A stretch of 64,000 nt of DNA, taken from Ascidiella aspersa. Taxonomy: Eukaryota. Under the pieces are notes generated by a model that was not told where the DNA came from, did no database searches, and was given only the letters and a program-made list of their open reading frames with translations. The stretch lies in the NCBI GenBank assembly GCA_963924565.1, contig OZ004612.1, forward strand, positions 25,110,001-25,174,000, read 5' to 3'. Positions 1 to 63,254 of this stretch are shown piece after piece (the stretch's first letter is position 1; each line of letters starts with the position of its first letter). Position numbers and translations under genes: made by a program.

Positions 1-606
1 TGGATTCGCCAGCACACCTTCTACACAAACCCAACCGCCACCCGATCGGTGCCTCGTACCATCTGGGTTATCAGCTACTCGGCCTTGGTCGGAATGGTCG
101 TCCTGCCGATTGGACAGGTGATTTTCCAGTGCCTGGCGCGCATCAACGCAACGCCGGTAGGCTGCGACTACTATCAACTGCCTGGATTTACGTTCTATTT
201 AACGCTTTTGGCACCGGTGCTGTTTATGCTTTTCGTGTTGGTACAGTTCATGCTGCTCGGCCTGGTGCTTTACCCCATTGCCAGTCACCTTCGCAAGAAT
301 CGGAGCGGCAGTAGCGGCAGCACGATACAAGATGTAATCGTTCGCCTGAGCATCTGCACCGGGATTTGCGTGGCCACCGACATTGGAGCCCTAATAGTTG
401 TTCTACATGGAATGCCGGAAGGACAATCTATGTCCTTCATGCCGCTCACGTTTAGCTTCAACGCGATCGCAAACGTCTTGTTTTTGTACCTGTCTTTTAC
501 GGACAAATTCGACCGGCTTGTTCCATTCAAAACGAGGATTCATTCAAATAATCCCAAAAACAAAGATTCCGAGAAAGGGCAGCAGACTAAGCAGTCGCAA
601 TTATAA
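1..606 (+). CDS. Orphan 7TM GPCR-like receptor, copy 1 (5' end outside the window)
   Basis: Open from base 1 (W-I-R-Q-H-T-F-Y...) to TAA at 604-606; nearly identical to the 3' two-thirds of ORF 2737-3717; C-tail type RIHSN...KQSQL. Confidence 0.85.
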   Translation, partial: WIRQHTFYTNPTATRSVPRTIWVISYSALVGMVVLPIGQVIFQCLARINATPVGCDYYQLPGFTFYLTLLAPVLFMLFVLVQFMLLGLVLYPIASHLRKNRSGSSGSTIQDVIVRLSICTGICVATDIGALIVVLHGMPEGQSMSFMPLTFSFNAIANVLFLYLSFTDKFDRLVPFKTRIHSNNPKNKDSEKGQQTKQSQL

Positions 607-2736: not shown

Positions 2737-3717
2737 ATGTCAACTTCCACCAGTAGTTTGGATGTGAGTACAGGGCCCGGAGCCTCGCCATCAAATGTTA
2801 CAGCACAACCTGGAGTCACCTTCGTTCCCTACGTGACTCGCCCGGCCGAGATATACATGCTGTTTTTTCTGCTGATCATCAGTCTCTACCTGACGGTGGC
2901 CGCGTCCTGGTACCAGTGGAAGCACGGCCAGGAATCGCTGAAGTGGACCAACCGTCTTTGCACCATCGCGCCCTCAACGCTGCTGCTTCAGTCATGCTTG
3001 TTTCTCATCGAGGTCTGCGGCACAAACCTGAGCGACGCGGTGTGCAGCTTCTACTTTATCGTCACCATTTTCCTGCTGAACTTCAACAAGTCCTTTGTCT
3101 ACTTGGTGCTATGGATTCGCCAGCACACCTTCTACACAAACCCAACCGCCACCCGATCGGTGCCTCGTACCATCTGGGTTATCAGCTACTCGGCCTTGGT
3201 CGGAATGGTCGTCCTGCCGATTGGACAGGTGATTTTCCAGTGCCTGGCGCGCATCAACGCAACGCCGGTAGGCCGCGACTACTATCAACTGTCTGGATTT
3301 ACGTTCTATTTAACGCTTTTGGCACCGGTGCTGTTTATGCTTTTCGTGTTGGTACAGTTCATGCTTCTCGGACTGGTGCTTTACCCCATTGCCAGTCACC
3401 TTCGCAAGAATCGTAGCGGCAGTAGCGGCAGCACGATACGAGATGTAATCGTTCGCCTGAGCATCTGCACCGGGATTTGCGTGGCCACCGACATTGGAGC
3501 CCTAATAGTTGTTCTACATGGAATGCCGGAAGGACAATCTATGTCCTTCATGCCGCTCACGTTTAGCTTCAACGCGATCGCAAACGTCTTGTTTTTGTAC
3601 CTGTCTTTTACGGACAAATTCGACCGGCTTGTTCCATTCAAAACGAGGATTCATTCAAATGATCCCAAAAACAAAGATTCCGAGAAAGGGCAGCAGACTA
3701 AGCAGTCGCAATTATAA
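2737..3717 (+). CDS. Orphan intronless 7TM GPCR-like receptor, copy 2 (326 aa; ECL2 Cys->Arg)
   Basis: Seven hydrophobic segments, Ser/Thr-rich N-terminus with NVT sequon, Cys at top of TM3 (DAVC), LWIRQ motif at TM3 end; PVGC of paralogs is PVGR here. Confidence 0.85.
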   Translation: MSTSTSSLDVSTGPGASPSNVTAQPGVTFVPYVTRPAEIYMLFFLLIISLYLTVAASWYQWKHGQESLKWTNRLCTIAPSTLLLQSCLFLIEVCGTNLSDAVCSFYFIVTIFLLNFNKSFVYLVLWIRQHTFYTNPTATRSVPRTIWVISYSALVGMVVLPIGQVIFQCLARINATPVGRDYYQLSGFTFYLTLLAPVLFMLFVLVQFMLLGLVLYPIASHLRKNRSGSSGSTIRDVIVRLSICTGICVATDIGALIVVLHGMPEGQSMSFMPLTFSFNAIANVLFLYLSFTDKFDRLVPFKTRIHSNDPKNKDSEKGQQTKQSQL

Positions 3718-5863: not shown

Positions 5864-6826
5864 ATGTCAACTTCCACCAGTAGTTTGGATGTGAGTACAG
5901 GGCCCGGAGCCTCGCCATCAAATGTTACAGCACAACCTGGAGTCACCTTCGTTCCCTACGTGACTCGCCCGGCCGAGATATACATGCTGGTTTCTCTGCT
6001 GATAATCAGTCTCTACCTGACTATGGCCGCGTCCTGGTACCAGTGGAAGCACGGCAAGGAATCGCTGAAGTGGACCAATCGTCTTTGCACCATTGCGCCG
6101 GCAATGCTACTTCTCCAGTCCTGCTTGTTTCTCATCGAGGTCTGCGGCACAAACCTGAGCGACGCGGTGTGCAGCTTCTACTTTATCGTCACCATTTTCC
6201 TGCTGAACTTCAACAAGTCCTTTGTCTACCTGGTGCTATGGATTCGCCAGCACACTTTCTACACAAACCCGACCGACGCCAGACCGGTGCCTTGCACCAT
6301 TTGGGTTATCAGCTATTCGGCCTTGGTCGGAATGGTCGTCCTGCCGATTGGACAGGTGATTTTCCAGTGCCTGGCGCGCATCAACGCAACGCCGGTAGGC
6401 TGCGACTACTATCAACTGCCTGGATTTACGTTCTATTTAACGCTTTTGGCACCGGTACTGTTTATGCTTTTCGTGCTGGTACAGTTCATGCTGCTCGGCC
6501 TGGTGCTTTACCCCATTGCCAGTCACCTTTGCAAGAATCGTAGCGGCAGAAGCGGCAGCACGATCCAGGATGTAATCGTTCGCCTGAGCATCTGCACCGG
6601 GATTTGCGTGGCCACCGACATTGGAGCCCTAATAGTTGTTCTACATGGAATGCCGGAAGGACAATCTATGTCCTTCATGCCGCTCACGTTTAGCTTCAAC
6701 GCGATCGCGAACATCATGTTTTTGTACCTGTCTTTTGTGGACAAATTCGACCGACTGGTTCCTTTCAAAACGAAGATTGATCCAAACGATGCCAGAAACA
6801 AAACTGCCGACCAAGGCCAGGGGTAG
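5864..6826 (+). CDS. Orphan intronless 7TM GPCR-like receptor, copy 3 (320 aa)
   Basis: Intact ORF paralogous to copy 2; alternative C-tail KIDPNDARNKTADQGQG. Confidence 0.88.
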   Translation: MSTSTSSLDVSTGPGASPSNVTAQPGVTFVPYVTRPAEIYMLVSLLIISLYLTMAASWYQWKHGKESLKWTNRLCTIAPAMLLLQSCLFLIEVCGTNLSDAVCSFYFIVTIFLLNFNKSFVYLVLWIRQHTFYTNPTDARPVPCTIWVISYSALVGMVVLPIGQVIFQCLARINATPVGCDYYQLPGFTFYLTLLAPVLFMLFVLVQFMLLGLVLYPIASHLCKNRSGRSGSTIQDVIVRLSICTGICVATDIGALIVVLHGMPEGQSMSFMPLTFSFNAIANIMFLYLSFVDKFDRLVPFKTKIDPNDARNKTADQGQG

Positions 6827-11149: not shown

Positions 11150-12124
11150 ATGGAAACTTCCACCAGCAGTTTAGAAGCGAGCACAGGGCTTGAAACCTCG
11201 CCATCGAATATTACAACGCCAGTCACCTTTGTTCCCTACGTGACTCGCCCGGCCGAAATCATAATGCTGGTTTGTCTGCTGATCCTTAGTCTCTACCTGA
11301 CGGTGGCCGCGTCCTGGTACCAGTGGAAGTATGGCCAGGAATCGCTGAAGTGGACCAACCGTCTTTGTACCATCGCGCCCTCAACGCTGCTGCTTCAGTC
11401 CTGCTTGTTTCTCATCGAGGTCTGCGGCACAAACCTGAGCGACGCGGTGTGCAGTTTCTACTTTATCGTCACCATTTTCCTGCTGAACTTCAACAAGTCC
11501 TTTGTCTACTTGGTGCTATGGATTCGCCAGAACACCTTCTACACAAACCCAACCGCCACCCGATCGGTGCCTCGTACCATCTGGGTTATCAGCTACTCGG
11601 CCTTGGTCGGAATGGTCGTCCTGCCGATTGGACAGGTGATTTTCCAGTGCCTGGCGCGCATCAACGCAACGCCGGTAGGCTGCGACTACTATCAACTGCC
11701 TGGATTTACGTTCTATTTAACGCTTTTGGCACCGGTACTGTTTATGCTTTTCGTGTTGGTACAGTTCATGCTGCTCGGCCTGGTGCTTTACCCCATTGCC
11801 AGTCACCTTTGCAAAAATCGGAGCGGCAGTAGCGGCAGCTCGATCCAGGATGTAATCGTTCGCCTGAGCATCTGCACCGGGATTTGCGTGGCCACCGACA
11901 TTGGAGCCCTAATAGTTGTTCTACATGGAATGCCGGAAGGACAATCTATGTCCTTCATGCCGCTCACGTTTAGCTTCAACGCTATCGCGAACGTCTTGTT
12001 TTTGTACCTGTCTTTTACGGACAAATTCGACCGGCTTGTTCCATTCAAAACGAGGATTCATTCAAATGATCCCCGAAACAAAGATTCCGAGAAAGGGCAG
12101 CAGACTAAGAAGTCGCAATTATAA
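11150..12124 (+). CDS. Orphan intronless 7TM GPCR-like receptor, copy 4 (324 aa)
   Basis: Intact ORF; distinct N-terminus METSTSSLEASTGLETSP and a different ('B-type') upstream region; core near-identical to copies 1/2/5. Confidence 0.88.
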   Translation: METSTSSLEASTGLETSPSNITTPVTFVPYVTRPAEIIMLVCLLILSLYLTVAASWYQWKYGQESLKWTNRLCTIAPSTLLLQSCLFLIEVCGTNLSDAVCSFYFIVTIFLLNFNKSFVYLVLWIRQNTFYTNPTATRSVPRTIWVISYSALVGMVVLPIGQVIFQCLARINATPVGCDYYQLPGFTFYLTLLAPVLFMLFVLVQFMLLGLVLYPIASHLCKNRSGSSGSSIQDVIVRLSICTGICVATDIGALIVVLHGMPEGQSMSFMPLTFSFNAIANVLFLYLSFTDKFDRLVPFKTRIHSNDPRNKDSEKGQQTKKSQL

Positions 12125-14257: not shown

Positions 14258-15220
14258 ATGTCAACTTCCACCAGTAGTTTGGATGTGAGTACAGGGCCCG
14301 GATCATCGCCATCAAATGTTACAGCACAACCTGGAGTCACCTTCGTTCCCTACGTGACTCGCCCGGCCGAGATATACATGCTGGTTTCTCTGCTGATAAT
14401 CAGTCTCTACCTGACTATGGCCGCGTCCTGGTACCAGTGGAAGCACGGCCAGGAATCGCTGAAGTGGACCAACCGTCTTTGCACCATCGCGCCCTCAACG
14501 CTGCTGCTTCAGGCCTGCTTGTTTCTCATCGAGGTCTGCGGCACAAACCTGAGCGACGCGGTGTGCAGCTTCTACTTTATCGTCACCATTTTCCTGCTGA
14601 ACTTCAACAAGTCCTTTGTCTACTTGGTGCTATGGATTCGCCAGCACACCTTCTACACAAACCCAACCGCCACCCGATCGGTGCCTCGTACCATCTGGGT
14701 TATCAGCTATTCGGCCTTGGTCGGAATGGTCGTCCTGCCGATTGGACAGGTGATTTTCCAGTGCCTGGCGCGCATCAACGCAACGCCGGTAGGCTGCGAC
14801 TACTATCAACTGCCTGGATTTACGTTCTATTTAACGCTTTTGGCACCGGTGCTGTTTATGCTTTTTGTGTTGGTACAGTTCATGCTGCTTGGACTGGTTC
14901 TTTACCCCATTGCCAGTCACCTTTGCAAGAATCGTAGCGGCAGTAGCGGCAGCACGATGCAAGATGTAATCGTTCGCCTGAGCATCTGCACCGGGATTTG
15001 CGTGGCCACCGACATTGGAGCCCTAATAGTTGTTCTACATGGAATGCCGGAAGGACAATCTATGTCCTTCATGCCGCTCACGTTTAGCTTCAACTCTATC
15101 GCAAACGTCTTGTTTTTGTACCTGTCTTTTGCGGACAAATTCGACCGGCTGGTTCCTTTTAAAACGAAGATTGATCCAAACGATGCCAGAAACAAAACTG
15201 CCGACCAAGGCCAGGGGTAG
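14258..15220 (+). CDS. Orphan intronless 7TM GPCR-like receptor, copy 5 (320 aa)
   Basis: Intact ORF; same N-terminal and C-terminal types as copy 3. Confidence 0.88.
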   Translation: MSTSTSSLDVSTGPGSSPSNVTAQPGVTFVPYVTRPAEIYMLVSLLIISLYLTMAASWYQWKHGQESLKWTNRLCTIAPSTLLLQACLFLIEVCGTNLSDAVCSFYFIVTIFLLNFNKSFVYLVLWIRQHTFYTNPTATRSVPRTIWVISYSALVGMVVLPIGQVIFQCLARINATPVGCDYYQLPGFTFYLTLLAPVLFMLFVLVQFMLLGLVLYPIASHLCKNRSGSSGSTMQDVIVRLSICTGICVATDIGALIVVLHGMPEGQSMSFMPLTFSFNSIANVLFLYLSFADKFDRLVPFKTKIDPNDARNKTADQGQG

Positions 15221-19007: not shown

Positions 19008-19986
19008 ACGGCGACTTCAACCAGCAGTGAAGATGCGAGCACATGGTTTGAAACCTTGCCATCAAATGTTACAGCACAACCTGCAGTCACCTTTGTGCCC
19101 TACGTGACTCGTACGGCTGAGATGATCATGCTGGTCCCTGTGCTGATCATCAGTCTCTACCTGACTGTGGCCGCGTCCTGGTACCAGTGGAAATACGGCC
19201 AGGAATCACTGAAGTGGACCAACCGTCTTTGCACTATCGCGCCCATTATGCTTCTCCTTCAGTCCTGCATGCTTCTGATCGAGGTCTACGGCAGAAACCT
19301 GAGCGACGCGGTGTGCAACTTCTACGCCATCGTTATTTTTTTCCTGCTTATCTTCAACAAGTCCTTCGTCTACCTGGTGCTCTGGTTGCGCCAACATATC
19401 TTCTACAAAACCCCGACCGCCGCCCGAACGGTGCCGCTCGCCATCTGGGTTATCAGCTACTCGGCATTGGTCAGAATAGTTGTCCTGCCGCTTGGACAGC
19501 TCGTCGTTGATGCCCTTAGCGTACGAAGGCACGCCGGTCGGATGTGTTAATGTCACCCGGTTCATAAAAAAAGAATTTAGGAGATCTATCCATACGGTGC
19601 TGTACATGCTCTTCGTGCTGGTACAGTTCCTGCTGCTCGGCCTGGTGCTTTACCCCATTGCCAGTCACCTTCGAAGAAACCGTAGCGGCAGCAGTGGAAG
19701 CACGATTCAGGATGTAATCGTTCGCCTGAGCATCTGCACCGGAATTTGCGTGGCTACCGACGTTGGCGCCTTATTCTTTATCCTATTTGGAATTCCGAAA
19801 GGGTCATCTTTGTCCTTCATTCCGCTCACCTTTAGCTTTAACGAAATCGCGAACATCTTGCTTTTGTACCTGTCTTTTACGGACAAATTCGACCGACTAG
19901 TTCCTTTTAACACGAGGATTAATTCAAATGATCCCAGAAACATAAAATCCGACCAAGGGGAGCAGACTGAGCAGTCGAAGATTTAA
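19008..19986 (+). pseudogene. 7TM receptor pseudogene, copy 6
   Basis: Start context tcaagcgACGgcg versus tcaagcgATGgaa in copy 4 (ATG->ACG at 19008); 2-bp deletion near 19526 (cgaaggcacg versus cgaagaggcacg in copy 7) splits the frame into ORFs 19056-19550 and 19480-19986. Confidence 0.85.
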
Positions 19987-22639: not shown

Positions 22640-23593
22640 ATGGCAACTTCCACCAGTAGTTTGGATGTGAGTACAGGACCTGGAGCGTCGCCATCGAATG
22701 TCACAACGCCAGAAACATTTGTGCCCTACGTGACTCGCCCGGCGGAGGTCATCATGCTGGTTCCTGTGCTGATTATCAGTATCTACCTGACGGTGGCTGC
22801 GCCCTGGTACCAGTGGAAGTACGGCCAGGAATCATTAAACTGGACCAACCGTCTTTGTACCATCGTACCGTCAACGCTGCTGCTTCAGACCTGCTTGTTT
22901 CTGATCGAGGTCTGCGGCAGAAACCTGAGCGACGCGGTGTGCAACTTCTACGCCATCGTTACTTTTTTCCTGCTCAACTTCAACAAGTCCGTCGTCTACC
23001 TGGTGCTCTGGTTCCGCCAGCACACCTTCTACACAAACCCAACCGCCGCCCGATCGGTGCCGCGAGTCATCTGGGTTATCAGCTACTCCGCCTTGGTCGG
23101 AATAGTCGTCCTGCCGCTTGGACAGATCTTCTTTGATGCCCTTAGCGTACGAAGAGGCACGCCGGTCGGATGTATAACCGTCACCCAATTTATGGGAACC
23201 AAAGTTAAAAGATCTATCCAGACGGTGCTGTACACGATCTTCGTGTTGAAACAGTTCCTGCTGCTCGGCTTGGTGCTTTACCCCATCATCAGCCACCTTC
23301 GCAAGAATCGTAGCGGCAGTAGCGGAAGCACGATCCAGGATGTAATCGTTCGCCTGAGCATCTGCACCGGAATTTGCGTGGCCACCGACGTTGGCGCCTT
23401 ATTCGTTATCCGATATGGAACTCCGAAAGGCGCATCAATGTCCTTCATGCCGCTCACCTTTAGCTTTAACGCGACCGTGAACATCTTGCTTTTGTACCTG
23501 TCTTTTGCGGACAAATTCGACCGACTAGTTCCTTTTAACAAGAGGATTAATTTAAATGATCCCAGAAACAAAAAATCTAAAGAAGTTCTTTAG
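22640..23593 (+). CDS. Orphan intronless 7TM GPCR-like receptor, copy 7 (317 aa)
   Basis: ATG at 22640 in the same aagtcaaaacccaATG context as copies 2/3/5; divergent TM4-ECL2-TM5; shortened C-tail ending KKSKEVL. Confidence 0.85.
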   Translation: MATSTSSLDVSTGPGASPSNVTTPETFVPYVTRPAEVIMLVPVLIISIYLTVAAPWYQWKYGQESLNWTNRLCTIVPSTLLLQTCLFLIEVCGRNLSDAVCNFYAIVTFFLLNFNKSVVYLVLWFRQHTFYTNPTAARSVPRVIWVISYSALVGIVVLPLGQIFFDALSVRRGTPVGCITVTQFMGTKVKRSIQTVLYTIFVLKQFLLLGLVLYPIISHLRKNRSGSSGSTIQDVIVRLSICTGICVATDVGALFVIRYGTPKGASMSFMPLTFSFNATVNILLLYLSFADKFDRLVPFNKRINLNDPRNKKSKEVL

Positions 23594-24130: not shown

Positions 24131-24254
24131 CTTGATAACAAATTGCAAAGCCAAAAAGGTCGAATAGATCGACATCATCTTGATTAAGACGTTTCGATAC
24201 GTCAAGATGATGTCGATCTACTCGACCTTTTTTGCTTTGCAATTTATTATCAAG
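24131..24254. repeat. ~124-bp near-perfect hairpin (palindromic mini-element)
   Basis: Arm cttgataacaaattgcaaagccaaaaaggtcgaatagatcgacatcatcttga pairs with tcaagatgatgtcgatctactcgaccttttttgctttgcaatttattatcaag; a decayed copy lies at ~9056-9135. Confidence 0.85.
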
Positions 24255-27603: not shown

Positions 27604-27922
27604 TGGGATAAGAGCATTTTTTGCACAACGTGCGCAAAAATGTGCACGCGAAAATATGCGAAAAATGTGCGCACACATAAAATTACCTTCAAAAATGTGC
27701 GCACATTTTAAAATGCCTTAAATGCGCTCACATTTTTACAGGGCAGTTTTAAATGTGCGCACACTCTGGGAAAAAAGTGCGCTCATTTTTAAGGCCAGTT
27801 TAAAATGTTAGGCACTTTCTGAAAAAAAAGTGCGCATAGTTTAAAACGCTTTTAAAATGTGCGCACATATTTTGCACATTTTCGCGTGCACATTGCGCAA
27901 AACAACGCCACGTTCCCTGTTG
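27604..27922 (-). mobile_element. tgtgcgcac-rich non-autonomous repeat in the TBC1D5 3' region
   Basis: Its reverse complement begins caacagggaacgtggcgttgttttgcgcaatgtg, matching caacaggggacgtggcgttattttgcacaatgtg at ~7781. Confidence 0.7.
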
Positions 27923-27975: not shown

Positions 27976-30900
27976 TTATCCGTTGTCGGAGCCGTTGGAG
28001 ACTACTAGCGGGTCGGACTCTGGCGGGTTTGGCAAGCGATCCAATTGAGTCTGGATGGAGATGGAGGTTTGGGAGGGAAAGGATGCCTCCATGTGGAGAG
28101 TGCCTCTGAGAATGTCGCGGATCTGTGAAGAAGAGAAAGATCGTTTTTCTCGTGAAGTATTTTCTTGATGAAAATAAATGAAAGTTGGGGGCAATTTTAA
28201 ACAATTTTTATGAAATTCTAAACTGAACGACAATTTATAGATGGAAATCGCTCTTGTGGTGTAAACGAAGTATAACCCGAAGTTAGCACTCCAAATGGCG
28301 TGTTTTAACCACGAAAGCCATATTTTCCAAGGCAACACTGTAAACGGCATAGCCAGGCTAGAAAAAACAACCGCGATGGCTTTCGGTGTATTAGTTATAT
28401 GTAAGCCGTAATGGTTGGTCAAAAAGCTGCATTCATATGTGTGTGTAATACTAAAACGTATAATTTTTTTTACGTACATAACTAAAAGAGCGCCTAAATA
28501 TTTACCATTTACATTTTTACTGGAATACATTAGGTTGTAAATTGAATTGATTGTGAATAAATAAATGTTATCGTATTCAAATTCTAAAATGATATAATTC
28601 TAATCTAATTTACATTTAACCAGCCCAGTGTTTCTTAACCATGGGCCGCGGCTCGATATTGTGTCGCCGTTTGAATTGGTTGTGTCATTGTCTGATCGAC
28701 TAAGGTAGTTTTATATGTTCAGATTTAATAGGATCAGGCCTGAGCAAGATTTATTCAATACGATTTATTCAGTACACAAATTACAAAAGCAACACAAAGA
28801 TATTGCCCATGCTAAATAAATTAGAACTTGTTCTATTGCCCAACGTCGAATGTTTTGTGTGCTTACATAATGTTCAACGAAAATAGTCGCGTTGCCAAAG
28901 CTTTGCGGTTATAAAAATAACATTTTAATATTTTCCTTCAAAAAAATATATATTATAAAAGGAAAATACCCTTAAAAATGCAAACAAAAGGCTTAAAAAT
29001 CACTGGTCTAGCCAAGAGGCTCTGCACACTTCTAAACACTTAGCATCAACCCGCCTATGACGTAACAATGGAGTAAATTTAAAAGTAAACAAGGTAGCTA
29101 GCCAAGGGTCTGTACACTTCTAAACACTTAACATTAACCTGCCTATGACGTCACAATGGAGTAAATGTAAAAGTAAACAAGGTACTGTCTGTACACTTCT
29201 AATACTTAGCATCAAGCCGCCTATGACGTCACAATGGAGTAAATTTAAAAGTAAACACAGGTATCCGAACTCGCCTGTTTGAGGTTGGCGACCGCCACAC
29301 AAGTTTCGGCGTCCTCCGTCGCATCCGTGTCCTCCTTCTGAGGACTCGGATTTTCGGCTTCGTCGCTCCTCGTCGCATCCGGAGGAGCAACTGCGCTCCC
29401 GCTCCTGGATCTCCGGCCGATCACTCCCTGCTGGAGCAGCCGGATGTTGGCGTCCAGCTTGTCGGAGCAGAAGCGACACTTCTCCTGCAGCTCGGCGTTC
29501 TCCTGCCGAAGGAGGAGGACCTCTTTCTCCTGCGAGAGATGAATTGAGTAAAGGTAGAAAAAGAAGAGTTACGGTAGAAAAAGAAGATGAAGCGAAAACG
29601 CTAAACTAAAAGAAATAGCTAAAAAAACTTGTTTGAGATAACCATGCAGTACAGATAAACTTTTTTTGGTTTTATTGCAAATTTCCGGCAACCACTCAAA
29701 ACTGATGTAGTAATAATGTGTTAAACGTTTTTTTAGTTTGTATTTCATTGTGTGCGTCGAGCTATTTTGCTGTGCGTTAAGTTAAGCTGTAAAAAGTTGG
29801 TTTGATAAAGGGCTTTCCATTAGTTTTTGCACCAGGAAGAATAGGTTTACTTTGTATAGTTATTAGGTCGTTTACATTTCAAGACAAACTTTTTTTTTCT
29901 CAGAACATTGACCAAAAAAATATGGATTTCACGACGAAATTTTTCATACACTGCAAAATTTATCTTTTAAAAGCAATGCTTTTCAAGGCACAATTACCCC
30001 AAAACTCACAAACATATCTCACACACCTGTTTCGCCATACGACAAACAAAACGCATCACATCGACTATGTACAGAAGGGCACATTTATTTGACCAGGCTA
30101 AGTAAGCCCAGTTATCACACACTAAAAAACCTTCAAACGCCTTTATAAACAACAGATGCTCAGCGTCCAAATAATCTAAACTTTACATTTTAGCAGGCGG
30201 CATTTGCTAGTAAGGAATTTACCAGTTTTTTAAGCATGACTGCCTTAGAAAAACTCGACAAAAAACCATTCACTGCTTGACGGCCTGTCACTGACCGGAT
30301 GCCTCACTCAGGTAAACATTAGTATTTAATATTATTAGAATGGCCGCGTGGAGCGAACGCCAACACTAAGCCCAATCTGTAGCACAGCGGCTAGTGCGTA
30401 CGCTAGCTCGCTTGCTCATAAAAACAACTAGACCACGCTCAAAACCAGACTCCAATTAGTGGCCATAAGTGGAGAACGCAAAAGTAGAAAGGCAACAGAA
30501 CAAACGAAGTGAAGCGAATTAAACAAAACAGACGAACTAAAATATAATTTTGTATTACACATAGACAATAAAAGCAACATACCAGGTCGAGTTGCTGTTG
30601 ATTTTGCATCGCTTGCATTTGATTGAGCTTGGGCCTGGCTTGGTCCGATTTGCCCATAGACTTTGAAGAATAGCGGTTGCGCGAAAAAGGTGACTCGTCA
30701 GAAACGGTGTCTAAAAATTAGTGTATTTTGTTTTCTATTGTTAAATTTTAAATTAAAAATAAATTAAAAACAGTTAAAAGTTTCCGATTTTTGATCATCG
30801 TTTACCATACGGTTTTCAATCATGTAATAAAGTTAAAGACATTCGAATATCTATTTATAGGTTTATGAAGACCTACAAAAATTAAATCACTCGACGTTTT

Positions 30901-39900: not shown

Positions 39901-42900
39901 TGATTAAATTCTACACCTATGCATTTATGTTAAAATAACTAATTTTTCTTTCATTTGCACCATCGTAAAATATAAAGAAACAATATCGTTCTCAAAAGAA
40001 AGAGTAATACATAATTTAAAAAATTACATTTAGCCTAAACAGCTAATAAGATATTTTTTTTCGATAACACAAAAGTTTTATATTCTTTGATATATTTGAT
40101 TGAATTTTACTTAAAAACAAAAAAAGGAAATGGTACTAAACATACGGCAAATCTCCCATATCCCTTGCATGTGCAGCGCCCTGAAGGTCACAATGAAGGA
40201 CAAATATGAGCGGCGCTAGCAACTCGTGCATTCCCTGGCGATAGGACAGGCTTTCGTGCTGCCGAGCGTAGCAGAACAAGATGTTCGCCATCATTTCGTG
40301 GACTTTTTCCGAATGGTAGAAATCAAGTTCGGGACATCTGAGTTCAAGAACAAAGACAATAAAAAACTTATATCAACGTCACTAAACGATACTGAAAAAC
40401 TGTTATTAGGTTTTGCCAATTGGTACTATATTAGGGTGTTTTTAATGTATATACATTTTGCCCAGCGGTCGTAATGAAAGACATTGAAATTTTTTACAAA
40501 CTGTCTTACTTTTTGGACAAAATAGTTATATCTGTGTCAGAATAAAAAATGAAGTTTCTAACATTCCTAGGCATTCATAAAAAACATTTGCTAGGCGTTT
40601 ATCCATAAATTTGTTACCTTGTGTTTTCTACAGTTTACATAACATTACAAAACATTATTTCAAGCACAGTTTGAGATTGGATGTTATTGTAAAGGGGGAA
40701 GAATGGGACAGTAATTGAAAGTGTTAACTACTCACGTTCTTTGAACATCTCTTTCAATTAAAGTTTTCAACTCAGCGTTGCGAAAATGCTGTGACCAAGA
40801 ACTCTACAAAAACAAATGCCATTTAAATTGAAGTAAAAACTAGGCTTAGCTTGTATTTAAAATTTATTAAATTATAAACAGCAGGGCAGACTTTAACAAC
40901 TAGATAAGTTTAGTTTTTTAATTCTAATCTAATTTGTGAATTGCTTGTGTGCTCTAATTCTAAATCAAATCTAATTCAGATTTTACTCAAAATGCTACTT
41001 TGTCCAACGGCATTTTTATTTACTCAGTCACAACAAAGAATTTGAATTATTACTCTTCAATTGGAATGACTTGTTGGCAGTGTTCCCGATAAGCACATTT
41101 TTTTTGGCCACTGGCGGACTTTTTTTTCACAGAAGTGCGCAAGCAAAAATAAAATTAAAAGTTTTTTTTTTTTTTACTTTAATTCGACTTCCAGTCAAGA
41201 AGGCCAGATTATCACTATTTTGCAAAGATTAGTAAATATAATACCTTATGTACCCCATTCTTACTAAACAAAAGTTTCAAAAAAGTGCCCAAATTAGTTT
41301 TATCCGAGCTACGTACAACAAAAAAAGTGCCCAGATTAGTTTTATCCGAGCTACGTACCGACAAAAAAAATGCCCAAATTAGTTTTATCCGAGCTTCGTA
41401 CCGACAAAAAAAGTGCCCAGATTAATTTTATCCGAGCTACGTACGGTACAAAAAGTGCCCAAATTAGTTTCATACGAGCTACGTACGAGCAAAAAAGTGC
41501 CTAAATTAGTTTTATTCGAGCTACGTACGGAACAAAAAAGTGCCCAAATTAGTTTTATTCGAGCTACGTACGGAACAAAAAAGTGCCAAAAATTAGTTTT
41601 ATCTGAGCTACGTACGAGCAAAAAAGTGTTCAAATTAGTTTGCTTTAAGATATATATATGTGGAAAAAAGCTGTTCTTAACTATGGAAGGCGTTATCGAA
41701 GTTCAAATTCTTGTTTACATTTAGGTTTTTTAAGAATTTGGTAATTCTAATTCTAATCTAATTTGAAAAAACAAAAATGATCTCATTCTGATCTATTTTT
41801 ACAAAAACTGAAATGCTCTAATTTTAATTCTAATCTAATTTAAAAAACAGAAATAAATTTAGTTGTCCAAGTCTGTTTCAGATTTTATGCCAGAACAAAA
41901 TTACCTTAAATACATTTCAAAAATAGTGCACTGCAGTTGCATGATATTTCAAAGTGTATTTTTAGTGGCACACAAAAGCTAAGTAAACTCCAGCACAGTT
42001 TTAAAAGCTTGCACACCACAAATGCTTAAAAAGACTTTCTTGCAAAAAGAGGCTTTTATAACGTTTGCAAGACTTAGTACAAAACGAACAAATGATAACT
42101 GTGGTTTGGAATTTGATGAATCAGAAAATCTGAATTCAGTTTAAATCTATATAATATATATACCAAATAAAAAATATATATATATATATTTCAATTTCAA
42201 ATGAATAAATGCTTTTAATATATATATGTACCTATAAAAAAAGGATAAGCACAATTGACAAATTAAGTGTCAAGTCCATAAATACATCCTTGAATGTTTA
42301 TCTTTATACTTGAGACCGCGTGATTGAAGTGACATCAAATTTTTGATTTTCTGTTTGCACACTTACGTTTTTGCTTTGTGAAAGCGGGTTTTCAACTTGT
42401 ATATCGTTTCGCTCGCTGCTTTCCTGCGGAATGTTGTTTAATGACGCTTTTATTCGAGCATAACTTTCCCTGGATCTCTGTGTGGCATTTTCCCAGTCGT
42501 TCTGATCTTCTGATAGACAACCAAGAAATATCTGAAATTAAGGGTTTGTTTGAGAATTGATTTCATATTAGACTAGTTGGTCTAAAACGGTTCTGTTTAC
42601 ATGTAAACCAACTCTGAGACCAGTGGTTCTCAAAGTTATTTTTATATTCTATCCTTAGAAGCCCAATCACTTCCAATACCTCTACCCAGCAAAACACACG
42701 GAGTATTCTACCTTTTAAACAAACCTACAGGATTTGACACAATTAAAGAAAATACCATATGTAAAACTGCCAGAGACACATTTGTGCCAAAGTTCAAGAC
42801 TTTTTACAAAATTTTAATCCATTAATCGTCCGAAAGTTGAGTTTGTTTGAACGGTGTAGGTATTTATTTTATGCCCGCATTGTTGTATATCTATTAAATG

Positions 42901-44130: not shown

Positions 44131-45364
44131 TTTCGAAGAATAATTTATAAAAATTTTCCTAAAGTCACAGTCAAAATTAAGTATTTTCTCAAGTTACAAA
44201 TCAGGCCTTAACTATAAGTTAACATTTGACTACAGAGGTAGACTGTTGTTTTCACAGGGTTAATAAAAATTTTTCACTAAATCTGTTGTCACAAAATACC
44301 AGTTAAAAAGATGAGTTAATCCATGGAGTAAGATAATTAACTTAAGGTATTTTAAGCTAATTTTACAATTAACGTTATTACAGCCGCGCAAATTTGGGCA
44401 GAAATGTTATTACAGCCGCACAATTTCAAGCTGCAAAATCGTCTCCCCTGCGCAAAGTCCAACGTTTCCAATCTAGAAGTCAGCATCCATACCCCAACAT
44501 AAAATTGTACAGGTTAACTATAATTTTTAGTAAAAATATGGCATGAAAATTTTTAAATACATAATGTGCCAGGAATTATTAGTTGGCTAGCATTTGCTTG
44601 GTAGATATATTTAAATCAAAAAGGCCAAAGACAAAACAAAATCAGTTAGTAATCAAAAAATTTGTACCTAATTATGCCTTAGTTATCTCATCTCAGGTTG
44701 CTAATTTTAACACACTTTTTGCAATCAAAGAACATTAAACATTTTTGTCCAATTTTCATTAATAAATATGCCGTCATAGATGGATTAGGGAAAGTGGGTT
44801 AGCGGTATGTCATAAAACATATTTTAACCTAAATTCATGTTTTTTCTCAAACCCTGTCTGTATATTATATGACACTTTTTATCAAGTGTGTAGTTCTCAT
44901 GAGAGCAGGTATGTAATCAAGGCCTTATGCACATCTGAAGTGCAACTCCTTATAAATCAACCACAGATACAAACTAATTACAAAGTTTTCAAAAAAAAAT
45001 TTAAAAATAAGGCACTATATTATTAGCGTGACAGAGGTTGTGCACGTTTGAGCAGGTTTTCGCAACTTACCGCTTTTCATGGCAATTTTAAACGAAATCA
45101 CAAAATGCCAATAATATATTTACAAATATATTATGTGAGTCTCAAGCGTACGGTTAATTTCCCTTTCCACTTTGGTGCACCGTTTTAAATCAAAACTTTT
45201 TGGATATTTGATTTCCGGCGATAAAAAGTAAAATAGGTTTCATAAAGTTTTAATCAATGTGGAAAGTTCTTAAATTTAAAACCGGATTATTGCATAAAAT
45301 CGAAATATCTGTCTTGATAAGAATATAGTTTTTCGCGTTAATTTGACTGATTAATAAAAATTAC

Positions 45365-45567
45365 GGCGCTGGTCTAGAATCCTACCACAGTTCTAAAATC
45401 AACGCACAAAATTTGAGTTAGGGTGCGGGTTAGCGTTCGGGTGTGGGTGGGTCAAGTATTATTATATTCTTTGTTTAATAATAATACTTGACCCACCTTA
45501 ACCCAAACGTTAACCCGCACCCTAACCCAAATGGTGTTTCGTTGTGGTAGGATTCTAGACCAGCGCC
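45365..45567. mobile_element. 203-bp palindromic MITE
   Basis: Perfect TIR ggcgctggtctagaatcctaccac, internal inverted ttagggtgcgggtta/taacccgcaccctaa; perfect 8-bp TSD aaaattac. Confidence 0.9.
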
Positions 45568-47295
45568 AAAATTACTCTTACAAACACAAATAACACACCT
45601 CATAGAACTTCTAAATAACAATTGCAGTTTGCTGCCAGCCTGCCATGTTCGACATTTACGAGCTATTTTAAAAACCATATTTAGTGTTTAAAACTGTAAT
45701 TACTATACGTTTATTACATGTTTGCATTTTCGTGATGCTTCTTCAAAATCTGACGTCTTTGTTACGCTTGAATGCATACCACTCGTCTACAAACCAAAGA
45801 GATTAAAATTTAAACAGATTTTATTCAATCCCTTTGTACAAACAATAGAAGGTTTTTATTGAATACTTGTTATCAAGCACCTGTTAACTAAACTTTAGGG
45901 AAAGAGTTCTTAAACTTTCTCTACTAGGATCCCTAAAAAGTGCAACCAGAATAGGCATAAACTTGTTCAAGGATGACATCATCAAAGAAGTTGACCAAAG
46001 AAGCCTGTCTGAATACATAAAAGCAGAAATCGCCAAAGCGTGTACGTGTTTCTATTAAGCTCAATTCATTTGAAAAAAATATTCCATTTTCAAATGTATT
46101 TTCATTTTCAATAGACTAACATATTTTTAGCTTATTATAAAACTATGCCACTACTAAAGAAAAGATAACTAGTATTTTCTCGATTTTTCCATAGACAGCA
46201 ATCTTTTGTTTTCGAAAGATACATGGATTAAGGTTTCTTTTGTGCCTTCGTCAGCCTATTTAACTATAAAAACATTTTCATATCTAGTTTGTTATCTCCA
46301 ACGATTAGAACGTTTTGTAGCAGTAATTGGGCATTCTTGTAAAATTTATCAAGCGTTATCAAGCTCCTGCATGGTAGGCCAAACATGTAGGCTAGGCTAT
46401 TGTGTTTACGTACCGGCAACCTATACTTTTTCCTATTCTCATCACCTAAAATGCATTAAACTTCGTTTACTTTTACGAACATGACTGAACTGATTTACAC
46501 CATTTGCTGGTAGGCTATTGTAAATTACGCTTTTAACTTGTCCTAAGAGGCGCACATAAGGCATATATCTGTCAATTCGTCCATTAAACAGAGACAAGAT
46601 TAACTAACACGGGTTGTGTTTTATGGCCGCTGACTGGCAAATAGGATAACTAGCATTTGTGTTGAAATCAGGAATCTATTTAAAACAACACAACGAATTA
46701 ATTTCGTGTCCGAAAAAAAACAAATATCAAAATATACGATTTTTGTATATTTGGATGGTCATTGGTAGGCCCAACAACAGTTTATATATTTTGTCAAGGT
46801 ACTTACTTTATTATTTTCTAACCCTATATCACTTTCTTATATTAAACGAAAATATGACATATGTTTATTACTTCCATGTTAAATGTTAAGGGTAAAAAAG
46901 CACCTTTATACAAGTTTTATTTACAAGAAGTTACTGAAATAAACCAATGTTCGAAAAGAATATAGAACCCATCAAAAACGTGCTGAAAAAAAAAACTGTT
47001 ACGAAAGAGAAACTCGAAGCAGCCTAATACGTTTTTAAAAATTGAAAGGGCAAACAAATCAAGAATAAAAAAAAAAGAAAATTCAGTGGGCTATAGTCGG
47101 GGCGAGTTTCATCTTAATACTTAAGTCGATACTTTGTTACAAACTTGCAATAATATGTGACCACAAATATAATGCAACGGTAACAGGTCGATAAGTGAAT
47201 ATTCCTATATAGTACGAAAGGATCTGCAGTGAAAGTCATTAGTAATTGCACTTTTACGTTTTAACACCTAAATGTCGCACGTCTACAGAACTTCT

Positions 47296-48286
47296 TTAGA
47301 TATTGGACTGTTTGGTCTCCTCGCCTTTACCGACCTCTTCCGGGCGCGGTTCGACCTTCGTGTTGAACGGAACCAGTCGGTCGAACTTGTCCGTGAACGA
47401 CATGTACAGCATTACCACGTTAAAAACAGCGTTGTAGCTGTAGACCAACGGCATAAAGGACATGGAAGCCCCTTTAGGCACGCCCACCAGTATGAACACC
47501 AAAAGCGACGTCGGTGGCCACGCAAATCCCGGAAGCGACGTCGGTGGCCACGCAAATCCCGGTGCAGATGCTCAGGCGAACGATTACATCTTGTATCGTG
47601 CTGCCGCTACTGCCACCACGGTTCTTGCGAAGGTGACTAGCGATGGGGTAAAGCACCAGGCAGAGCAGCATTAACTGTACCAGCACGAAGAGCATGTAAA
47701 ACAGCGGTATCGCAAACTTTACGAAGGTAAGTCCTGGCAGGTGTACGTAGACGCAGCCTACCGGCGTTGCGTTGATGCGCGCCAGGCACTGTAAAATCAT
47801 CTGTCCAAGCGGCAACCCCAAGACGCCGATTAAGGTCGAGTAGCTGATAACCAAGATGACGCGAGACACCGATCGGGCGGCGGTCGGGTTTGTGTAGAAA
47901 GTGTGCTGGCGTAACCATAGCACCAGATAGACGAAGGACTTGTTGAAAATAAGCAGAAAAAGGGTGGCGATTACGTAAAAACTGCATACAGCGTCGCTCA
48001 GGCCACTTCCGCAGACCTCGATGAGAAACAAGCAGGCCTGAAGAAGCAGCGTTGACGGAGCGATGGTGCAAAGACGGTTGGTCCACTTCAGAGATTCCTG
48101 GCCGTACTTCCACTGGTACCAGAACGCGGCCACCGTCAAGTAGAGACAGAGGATTAGCAAAGATACCAACAAGATGATCTCGGCTGGGCGAGTCACGTAG
48201 GGAACAAAGGTGACTGGCGTTGTAGAATTTAAAGGCGAGAGTCCGAGCCCTGTGCTCGCATTTAAACTGCTGGTGGAAGTTGTCAT
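47296..48286 (-). pseudogene. 7TM receptor copy 8, inverted, frameshifted in TM6
   Basis: ORFs 47474-48286 and 47296-47502 together rebuild a full paralog; a tandem repeat of aagcgacgtcggtggccacgcaaatcccgg (47503-47562) gives a net +28 bp frameshift relative to paralogs. Confidence 0.85.
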
Positions 48287-60532: not shown

Positions 60533-63254
60533 TTAAAGTTGATTTTCTGCTATGACATTCCCTTCTTTATTTCTGCTTTGGGCAAAAATCTTACGTTTTT
60601 TAAGTTTCTCCAATCGAACAGTGCATCTGTCTATTATTGTGGAATAAAGCAAGGGGTTTAACGCACTGTTAATGGGAAGCAAAATACCAGCACTAATAAG
60701 ATAAACATCGTTGGGTAGTGGAACACCAGAAACAGCCAAGTAAGCAAGCACACACATTGGGATCCAGCAACAGAAGTCAGTAATAAGCAAGCGAGAAATA
60801 CGTTTTTGCATTGTGCTGTTGGGTTGCTTGTTTCTAGATTTAGCCATTTTGTTACTTCTTGTGTAAATAAGTATGTAAGCCACAAGCATGAAAATGAAAA
60901 GCAGGAAGTTGAGTGTGATAAGAAACACAGAATATTGCCAAGAAGCGTCATTTGCAGAGGCGAACAGTCTGGGCATGCAAACACTAGTTTCACCATAATA
61001 ACCAAATATTCCTTTTATCGGTTGATGTGGAAAGGTTTTGCTTATTAGCTGAGTGACATCATGCCAATAAAGTGACGTCATGTTATGTGGTTTTATTTTA
61101 TTGGCTAAATCAACCATATTTTGTTTAAGGACTTGATTAGTTTTGAAAAATCTACTTGAAAACCAAACATGGGAAACAAAATATCCTGAACTGTAATTAA
61201 ACAAAGGCAGAAGTGAAAATAAAATTGCAAACAGCCAAACACATGCACATGAAATGTAAATCCCCTTTAACTCCATAGCCCTAGTAATAAATGGTTTATA
61301 AACTGTTGCTAGTCTAAACGCTGTCATGACAGCCATAGTACCCGAAGAGGCCATGGTAGCTACAACACACAACACCCCAAGAATGGAACAGGTGCTACTT
61401 GTACGCCAAGCTGCGTCAAACGAGCAATAATCCCCTGAAAACTGTAAACCCTTTATGCTTATTGCAATTAGATAAATGCCCATGAGAAAATCAGCAGGTG
61501 CCAAACTAAGCAAAAATATGTAAGTGCTTTTTGTAAAATTATCCGCGTTTTTTTTATTTATAATGTCCCTTATAGTAATTACGCCAACCGATAAATTCCC
61601 GAAGATAGCCACCGACCCCATTAACCAGAAGAAGGCTATGTAAACAGGGTTGGCGATCATTTCCTTTTGATTTGAGAAAATGCTACTTCGCTTACTTATA
61701 GGGGGGCATTCGTCACTTCCGTCTGAACATTGAGGATATCCATCTTCAACCAAGTTGATGGCGATCGACAGAGGTTTTCCATTGCGACAGTAAAATCTCG
61801 TTTTGCTGCATCGCGTCGTATCCTCGTCCGATCCGTCGTCGCAGTCTATTGTTCCGTCACAAAGGTTGTTGACATCGATGCTGATGAACGTTCCACTGAT
61901 GCAACCGTGACGCTTGGGGCACAATTCACGTTCGTTGCATGACATCCATGACATATTCAGCCCAGTACATGCTACTCCCAACGAGGCAGTCAAACCAATG
62001 CACTCCACATCGCAAAAAACCAAATGCACTCCACATCGTAAAGAGAAAGACGGTTGGCAATACATGTGTTCTACTTCACAGTCATCCTCAACTAGTCCAC
62101 AATATTTCGTGTTGGATTCTCCCACACAACTGACTTCTGGGTTACAAAGCACATTGTCCATGTCCATGCAGTCCGTTTCATTGTAGCAATGCATTTGGTT
62201 GGGAGGGCAAGTGTCGCTAGCGTCGCCCAAGATATCACGGCAAACTGTTTGGTCGTCGCACAAACATTCATCGGAAAGATCATAGCAGTCAGCCACTCCG
62301 TCACAAACTTGCTGTTGAGAAACAACCTGTCGATTGTCCAAACACGAGAAGCAAACAAATTGTCCATCAACGAAGCAAATATCTGACTTATCAGCGCACT
62401 GAGGTTCATCGTCGTAGATGTTTATCTGCGGTAAAACGCAAATCGCTTTTCTGCTTGTTCCTGAGCATTTAAATCCCTGCCCGGTTTGAATTTCATCATC
62501 ATTGCAACGAATGAAGTTGTCGCAATAGCTATGGGTGTGAATGAGATTACCGTTACTACATCGTGACAAACTTGTGTGCCTTCCCTCTTCACAAACCCAC
62601 TGTCCATTCCCACACACCCTGTCTATCCGACCTTCACACGGCCCCATAAGTTGGTGGCAAGTCGTATTGTTTTGGATTGCTTGAAACTTGACTTTGCTTG
62701 TCTCGTTAGAGCAAGTTAGAGCAATGAGTTACATTAATCCACTTATCACCTACAAACACAAGCCGATCATCGCAAGGCTCCTTTCGTCCGACGCACTGGA
62801 TCCTACCGTCAGCCACTTGTTGCTTGCAAGCTCTGCAAAACCACTCGTCGCTACCTTCTAAGCACTCGTTACCACCTTCACATATGTTGTACCTCTCACT
62901 AACACACTGAAGACCATCGCTGCAATGTACTGCGCCCTTTCCACAACTGCTGCAGTTTGTCTCATCGCTTGAATCGCCACAACGCTTCCACCCATCGCAC
63001 CACTTGGTTAAGTGAACACACTGCTTCCCATTATCGCACTTCTTCGCTCCTGGTTTGCAAGTTGTGCAGTCCATCTCATCCTCACCCCAAGAACAATCCT
63101 CCCATCCGTCGCAAACTTCGGTTTGGTTGATGCACTTTGCATCTGACTCCAAAAATAACTTGCTACACTCAAACTGATCCTGAGCGCATCTTTCGTTTGC
63201 TCCAACGCACAAGGCGAGCAACGCACAAATAAAAGTAAACATTCCAAACTGCAT
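60533..63254 (-). pseudogene. Intronless LDLa-repeat LGR/RXFP/GRL101-type GPCR, frameshifted by a 10-bp duplication (903 aa when repaired)
   Basis: Signal peptide, multiple LDLa modules (CDGWEDCSWGEDE, CDGVADCYDLSDE, CDGTIDCDDGSDE) and LGR-type 7TM motifs (GN, ADFLMGIYL, YYGETSVCMP, TDFCCWIP, LPINSALNPLLY). Removing one gttagagcaa copy (62705-62724) fuses ORFs 62706-63254 and 60533-62647 in frame. Confidence 0.85.

Follow-up and report, generated by a model that had tools for sequence, protein, structure and literature searches.

The closest described relative of the receptors analysed here is KH.C3.516 (Cirobu.g00005701) of Ciona robusta, a seven-transmembrane (7TM) gene placed in a tunicate-specific family by Johnson, Razy-Krajka, and Stolfi in 2020 (PMC7397655). 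As described there, it is expressed in the axial columnar cells of the larval papilla, with enrichment at the exposed tip, and a chemoreceptor role was proposed, with a neurotransmitter ligand named as the alternative. In the accessible text of PMC10962819, KH.C3.516 serves merely as a marker. A literature search, with subscription journals mostly outside its range, turned up neither an evolutionary nor a functional study of this family. According to a review in the part available, tunicates have none of the smell and pheromone receptor families of vertebrates, and their receptors for larval settlement cues are unknown (PMC7776563). The available part of a census of Ciona GPCRs reports no olfactory receptors (PMC2396169), and that of a 2026 paper on taurine chemotaxis leaves the receptor to future work (PMC12922724).

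Clustered receptor genes that exchange segments have been described elsewhere. For odorant receptor clusters, mosaic formation and homogenisation by gene conversion are reported, and the vertebrate odorant and vomeronasal clusters share with the present locus tandem arrays formed by unequal crossover, mosaics, conversion, pseudogenes, and hypervariable pocket positions (PMC1995454). They differ from it in that there is no sequence relationship, that whole TM4-ECL2-TM5 and TM6-ECL3-TM7 blocks are exchanged here, and that omega is not significantly above 1 here. The neighbouring GPCR paralogues CCR2/CCR5 and CCR1/CCR3 also swap segments, mostly transmembrane and at times ECL1, ECL2, or ECL3; each case involves just two genes for known chemokine receptors, and positive selection has been reported for their extracellular domains (PMC2880985), whereas the present family is multi-copy and orphan.

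The window, a stretch of 64,000 nucleotides from Ascidiella aspersa, contains eight related single-ORF 7TM genes, seven in tandem on the plus strand (1-23593) and one on the minus strand (47296-48286). Their features are listed in Table 1. Open frames of 317-326 amino acids were present in six of the eight. In copy 6, ACG stands in place of the ATG of the others, and a 2-base deletion lies at 19526/19527 in ECL2. Copy 8 carries 30 bases duplicated in tandem (47503-47562) where the TM6 junction ends, and its frame is broken after that point. The 5' flank and N-terminus of copy 2 resemble copies 3 and 5 and its C-terminus and 3' flank resemble copies 1 and 4, so that copy 2 is likely an unequal-crossover chimera. 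It reads PVGR, with Arg replacing an ECL2 cysteine whose conservation across the family is at least 90%, and is likely impaired despite its open frame. A first-pass annotation of this DNA had described the TM4-TM5 segment of copy 2 as nearly the same as that of copies 1 and 3-5, which is correct for the sequence as a whole but passes over the lost cysteine.

Table 1. Receptor gene copies of the window and segments of copy 7. Types are given as ECL2 type/TM7 type; U1 and U2 are upstream flank classes.
Feature	Position	Strand	Description
Copy 1, 3' part	1..606	+	Intact 324-aa ORF, start ~370 bases upstream of the window; types Q (ECL2)/T (TM7); flank U1
Copy 2	2737..3717	+	Open 326-aa ORF; ECL2 cysteine replaced by Arg
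Copy 3	5864..6826	+	Intact, 320 aa; types Q/T; flank U2
Copy 4	11150..12124	+	Intact, 324 aa; types Q/T; flank U1
Copy 5	14258..15220	+	Intact, 320 aa; types Q/T; flank U2
Copy 6	19008..19986	+	Broken; basic D-type ECL2 cassette; flank U1
Copy 7	22640..23593	+	Intact 317-aa 7TM protein; types D/T; flank U2
Copy 7, cassette A (residues 161-196: TM4 top, ECL2, TM5 top)	23120..23227	+	Hypervariable
Copy 7, conserved junction (residues 197-250: inner TM5, ICL3, inner TM6)	23228..23389	+	omega 0.16-0.18
Copy 7, cassette B (residues 251-299: TM6 top, ECL3, TM7, helix 8)	23390..23536	+	omega 0.19-0.26
Copy 8	47296..48286	-	Broken; cassette A resembles copies 1-5; cassette B resembles two second-cluster genes; flank U1

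A second cluster lies ~750 kb off on the same contig and contains the intact genes B1, B2, B4, and B5, the broken gene B3, and fragments. Among the near-full-length copies of both clusters, 3 of 13 are broken. B3 (C6, ~24.351 Mb) has an 18-base Ser-Gly repeat in ICL3 and a 1-base insertion. Tandem duplications within the conserved junction thus occur in two of the three broken copies (copy 8 and B3) and are possibly scars of slippage or recombination.

Judged by sequence similarity, the eight copies belong to the tunicate-specific 7TM family of KH.C3.516. In a BLASTP comparison, copy 7 and KH.C3.516 were identical at 103 of 270 positions (38%, E 6e-57); the agreement of the sequence used as KH.C3.516 with residues 8-291 of the published supplement was judged by eye. 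The likeness includes shared motifs, a tandem arrangement, the lack of a GPCR family match, and the proposed chemoreceptor role. When KH.C3.516 was compared with the A. aspersa genome, the four best matches were window copies 3, 5, 4, and 1, with the window copies at 190.6 bits narrowly over a C3 gene at 178.4. The cluster contains the genes of this genome most like the one published tunicate chemoreceptor candidate; the node bearing on one-to-one orthology with KH.C3.516 was left open in a quick 71-row tree. The published work, in the part available, deals with expression and localisation of one Ciona gene (PMC7397655), whereas a recent 13-copy subfamily, its cassette mosaicism, and a predicted fold and G-alpha complex are treated here. 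Copy 7 had at least 104 matches in its own genome (125 of 151 candidates scored), and an ORF of >230 amino acids matching the family profile was present at 44 of 55 further loci examined. In a seven-gene group of the same family at C3:31.03-31.10 Mb, the ORF match ends just past TM5. This end is likely an intron, and not every family member would therefore be intronless. Word-seeded homologue searches returned one relative with a single-protein query and none with an alignment query, so a full HMM scan was needed; it yielded 1057 clusters at E<=0.001. Ten of these hits were looked up, and the seven that carried names were all ascidian (four Clavelina, two Styela, one Ciona), none with a tested function.

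The AF2 model of copy 7 (pLDDT 90.4) consisted of seven helices (33-61, 64-92, 98-132, 142-167, 187-222, 230-260, and 269-287), an ECL2 hairpin (170-182), and helix 8 (292-296). Foldseek gave class A GPCRs in 49 of the 49 listed rows with TM-scores of 0.38-0.56, the top rows being peptide receptors. In VIA-align, class A GPCRs tied with Ste2, microbial rhodopsins, and TMEM87A (Z 16.8-15), with values of 16.8 for Ste2 (rmsd 5.8, 263 aligned), 15.9 for Acetabularia rhodopsin (3.8, 212), and 15.6 for P2Y1 (4.6, 256). Across 126 family sequences C101 was invariant, and C178 and R126 were each at least 90% conserved. R126 sits 25 residues past C101, and from this spacing we take it to be the class A 3.50 position. 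No member of the 126 matched a Pfam GPCR family at E<=0.01, no odorant receptor profile in Pfam was matched, and a sequence search of the PDB gave no GPCR. The canonical class A motifs DRY, CWxP, and NPxxY are altered to WxRQ, CxxxD, and N-x3-N. The seven helices, the cysteines of TM3 and ECL2, the Arg at its distance from the TM3 cysteine, helix 8, and a predicted docking of the G-alpha C-terminal helix are features held in common with class A GPCRs. Identity of 10-16% to the listed structures, the missing Pfam 7tm_1 match, the altered motifs, and the tie with non-class-A folds set the family apart from them.

A complex of copy 7 with a Gi-like alpha subunit of the same genome was predicted. 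It passed the score mark with 0.61 compared with 0.00 for the best of three controls, a result that is uninformative on which G-alpha binds. The mark was reached by 51/78 solved versus 2/108 mismatched pairs, and in eukaryotes by 39/65 versus 2/126. Contact agreement between runs was at least 88% and partner pLDDT at least 74. The pass may be due to likeness to solved GPCR-G protein complexes. The predicted interface of copy 7 is formed by R126, 129-136 (ICL2), 216-235 (TM5-ICL3-TM6), and 288-291, set against the C-terminal helix of the alpha subunit. The end of TM5, ICL3, and the start of TM6 lie within this predicted interface, in agreement with the earlier description of that stretch as facing the G protein. 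Variation is equally low (0.10) in the 21 residues of the predicted interface and in 197-250 as a whole. At C1:4.766-4.782 Mb lies a tandem of six single-ORF genes for Gi-like alpha subunits. Their identity to the first of them is 68-86%, but their C-terminal tails, the receptor-contact helix, are very different; one further single-ORF copy is located at C8:11.05 Mb. In Ciona, divergent Gi-like genes are described as required for metamorphosis, and the accessible text of that work has no mention of a six-gene Gi-like tandem (PMC12176390).

The first-pass annotation had placed a hypervariable TM4-ECL2-TM5 segment next to a homogenised ICL3-TM6 segment at 23095-23400, which corresponds to codons 153-254 of copy 7, and the peptides that it quoted for the eight copies are present in the sequence as written. 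The hypervariability was borne out. In four of four sequence sets the top non-synonymous 18-codon window was residues 179-196 (23174-23227), where pN was 0.45-0.62 compared with a permutation maximum of 0.20-0.28, exceeded in 0 of 5000 permutations (scan p<0.0002). The segment does vary across paralogues, but copies 1-5 are nearly one sequence in cassette A, and the window therefore has about three cassette types and not eight. The alignment behind the scans, the PHI test, and the first omega estimate for 179-196 had a frame error over about four codons of copy 8 (180-184), which left the intact-gene set untouched. The segment-wise omega, tree, quartet, and silent-codon tests were performed on the corrected alignment. 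Omega of residues 161-196 was 1.07-1.12, about four times the background of 0.23-0.26 in TM1-TM4 (p<1e-5 against 0.25 in three of three sets), which establishes the proposed non-synonymous excess over ECL2 and the top of TM5. Values >1 were not significant for 161-196 (p 0.6-0.84). Residues 179-196 alone gave 1.1-2.3, with a best p of 0.05 for this post-hoc 18-codon window. The site models M1a/M2a and M8a/M8, run on one tree or four segment trees from several starts in our own GY94 implementation and not in codeml, brought no gain. Because their power in simulation was low (one of eight at omega 2 and one of eight at omega 4), this null is weak evidence against positive selection. Selection on cassette A is either relaxed or weakly diversifying, with the data fitting both. 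Of the ligand-facing diversification proposed earlier, the extracellular bias of the variation is upheld; the site-wise dN/dS tests, at their low power, gave no significant omega >1.

The net charge of cassette A was +4/+5 in copies 6, 7, B4, and B5 and +2/+3 in B1, B2, and copy 8; in copies 1 and 3, where the cassette includes six aromatics, it was 0. By type, D cassettes carry +4/+5 and E cassettes +2/+3. Outer helix halves varied more than inner halves (0.27 versus 0.14, p 0.0009), with TM7 as the exception. The variable TM3 sites 105, 109, and 113 lie on a single helix face by helix periodicity, and by analogy with class A receptors this face would line the pocket. In eight other paralogue groups of the genome, the segment corresponding to cassette A was the most variable in three, the least variable in two, uninformative in two, and not comparable in one; one group has its lowest variation there (0.01). 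In a second sample, a loose end at 23198-23227 reads by eye as a B5-like variant of the TM5 top, with three amino-acid and no silent differences in 30 bases. It is a weak hint of further cassette alleles.

The earlier annotation had missed a second divergent segment, cassette B (TM6 top, ECL3, and TM7). Here pS peaked at 252-269, with p 0.0004 and 0.006 in the two sets including the second cluster. Cassette B occurs in two old types, T and V, with differences at the majority of silent sites. Separate trees for the four segments are in conflict. With the cassette A data (161-196), and likewise with those of cassette B (251-299), the trees of the other three segments are rejected (AU p<0.001); the trees of TM1-TM4 and 197-250 have short branches and are mutually compatible. 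In the quartet of copy 8, copy 1, B4, and copy 7, the site counts were 36:0 in cassette A and 0:30 in cassette B (p 2e-19), including 4 and 11 silent-codon sites, respectively. In cassette A, copy 8 falls with copies 1-5 (36:0), and in cassette B it falls with B4/B5 (30:0), which places a switch of ancestry within 197-250. All four combinations of cassettes were found: Q/T (copies 1-5), D-or-E/T (6, 7, B1, and B2), D/V (B4 and B5), and Q/V, the last only in the broken copy 8 as assembled. Among intact genes, particular pairs had an excess of silent divergence in one cassette. Copy 7 and B4 differed at 20/31 silent codons in cassette B versus 29/154 in the scaffold (p 1e-6); for copy 1 and B1 the counts were 8/12 in cassette A versus 37/152 in the scaffold (p 0.004). 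The PHI test for recombination gave p 0.0005 for the intact genes, and its silent-only form was significant in one of four sets. Convergent change of amino acids was ruled out as the source of the conflicting trees, since the switch is seen at silent-codon sites as well. A regional mutation-rate effect was likewise ruled out, because the high silent divergence of each cassette is pair-specific; copies 6 and 7 differ at just 2/38 in cassette B. The outgroup polarity of the cassette types was weak and was not used. From these sequence comparisons, the copies appear as patchworks in which two divergent outward-facing segments were swapped across a conserved middle.

The upstream flanks fall into class U1 (copies 1, 4, 6, 8, and B1) and class U2 (copies 2, 3, 5, 7, B2, B4, and B5). 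Most pairs of the same class can be aligned over 200-1400 bases, and pairs from different classes over ~100 bases. Copies 1/4 and 3/5 have different flank classes and near-identical coding bodies. Silent codons differed between copies 1 and 5 at 5/117 in TM1-TM4 and 0/36 in cassette A, and between copies 3 and 4 at 0/36 in cassette A versus 21/160 in the scaffold. The U1/U2 neighbours 6/7 and B1/B2 have cassette types in common within each pair. The near-identical bodies behind unlike flanks, these shared types, and the chimeric copy 2 indicate that conversion and unequal crossover act on the whole gene, cassette A included. Divergence between the deep cassette types exceeds that between the flanks of the units in which they sit.

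In the conserved stretch, residues 236-250 of TM6 had no amino-acid change among the seven intact genes and are similar in Ciona. Residue 204 of copy 7 (23249-23251), mid-TM5, is Lys only in this copy and Val in the nine other compared copies. For residues 233-250, pS was 0.09-0.19 compared with 0.26-0.36 gene-wide, and tree dS was about half that of TM1-TM4 (a fifth in the window-only set). A dip as low as this is expected somewhere in the gene by chance, so the low silent divergence is not significant: scans for low pS at 233-250 gave p 0.12-0.53 with all codons and 0.29-0.94 with the scaffold only, and for the 23 codons of the first-pass annotation p 0.52-1.0, in four of four sets each. In ICL3 (223-232), tree dS was 2.1-2.4 versus 1.0-1.9 in TM1-TM4. 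Of the statement that ICL3-TM6 is nearly identical even at synonymous sites, the invariant TM6 protein and the low pS remain, but the dip does not survive the scan and silent divergence in ICL3 is above average. Copies 7 and 1 differ at 18/105 silent codons in TM1-TM4 and 8/48 in TM5-TM6. Homogenisation of TM1-TM4 is about as strong, and conversion has reached cassette A too. A conversion hot spot specific to ICL3-TM6 is not supported by these counts and was rejected on the basis of the scan. Gene conversion is real, but a gene-converted G-protein-facing module as a local feature is not supported. Residues 236-250 are absent from the named G-alpha interface residues. As this TM6 core lies outside the predicted interface and is conserved out to Ciona, purifying selection explains its invariance, and the stretch as a whole is best seen as a junction that protein-level selection maintains, not as a module with special conversion.

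The copies are probably mosaic 7TM proteins of the KH.C3.516 family, likely G-protein-coupled chemoreceptors, in which recombination between paralogues shuffled two old extracellular cassettes across TM5-ICL3-TM6. The G-protein face and the TM6 core would be under purifying selection, which would preserve long near-identical DNA flanking each cassette, in which conversion tracts and unequal crossovers could begin and finish. Each cassette would travel as a block and would form a separate wall of the outer pocket (TM4-ECL2-TM5 versus TM6-ECL3-TM7), so that swapping would yield new receptor variants and new combinations would give new ligand ranges. The earlier proposal in full, that positive selection diversifies a ligand-facing ECL2/TM5 and gene conversion specifically homogenises ICL3-TM6, is quite unlikely. 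The pN peak at 179-196 with its omega estimates of 1.1-2.3 and the reduced tree dS of TM6 are in its favour, as are the differences between copy 8 and B4 at 3/46 silent codons in 197-250 versus 26/100 in TM1-TM4, and the site tests had power of just one in eight in each of two simulations. It is opposed by the non-significant low-pS scan in all four sets, the high dS of ICL3, the about equal homogenisation of TM1-TM4, the conversion of cassette A, and the lack of omega >1.

The least probable of the alternatives is a neutral patchwork, in which tandem-array recombination mixes old paralogue segments, the outer loop is unconstrained, and the combinations are without functional meaning. An omega of cassette A indistinguishable from 1, the 3 broken among 13 near-full-length copies, the missing ECL2 cysteine of copy 2, and the paralogue group that is least variable in the cassette-A segment (0.01) would fit it; the many replacement changes in cassette B at omega 0.2-0.26 and the directional charge differences between cassette A types, 0 to +5, would not. 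The old cassette types also persist though conversion reaches them, which suggests that selection keeps them. We consider it rather improbable that these are internal or immune-type receptors (peptide, neurotransmitter, or self/non-self) or 7TM proteins without G-protein coupling. Peptide receptors head the Foldseek rows, 0 of 126 members match a Pfam GPCR family, and the canonical DRY, CWxP, and NPxxY motifs are altered. A neurotransmitter ligand is the alternative of Johnson et al. (PMC7397655). These points are countered by the large clustered family with copies born and lost, by the predicted G-alpha docking, and by the apical position of KH.C3.516 in exposed papilla cells (PMC7397655). 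Beyond the mosaic chemoreceptor reading preferred here, a more far-reaching version is unlikely as a whole. According to it, these would be the missing chemoreceptors of the sea squirt with a combinatorial repertoire, their pocket-wall cassettes being older than the copies that carry them, kept by balancing selection, and recombined via the invariant TM6 junction; the receptors would signal through the tandem of single-ORF, tail-diversified Gi-like alphas in the same genome.

The mosaicism is a real feature of this candidate chemoreceptor family, which has been little studied, and it arose by a kind of process already familiar from clusters of odorant and chemokine receptor genes. New here are the predicted GPCR fold and the predicted G-alpha docking for that family. 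The four cassette combinations form a natural 2x2 set of putative pocket-wall chimeras with a nearly constant scaffold, a ready-made layout for deorphanisation. Between the receptor genes, self-inverted elements at 24131-24254, 27639-27894, and 45359-45573 are likely small transposons, and tandem repeat arrays occupy 41278-41641 and 29008-29263. At 60533-63254, the minus strand encodes a rhodopsin-type GPCR with LDLa repeats (704-aa ORF) and an upstream LDLa ORF, a kind described in Ciona as LDLRR-GPCR (PMC2396169).
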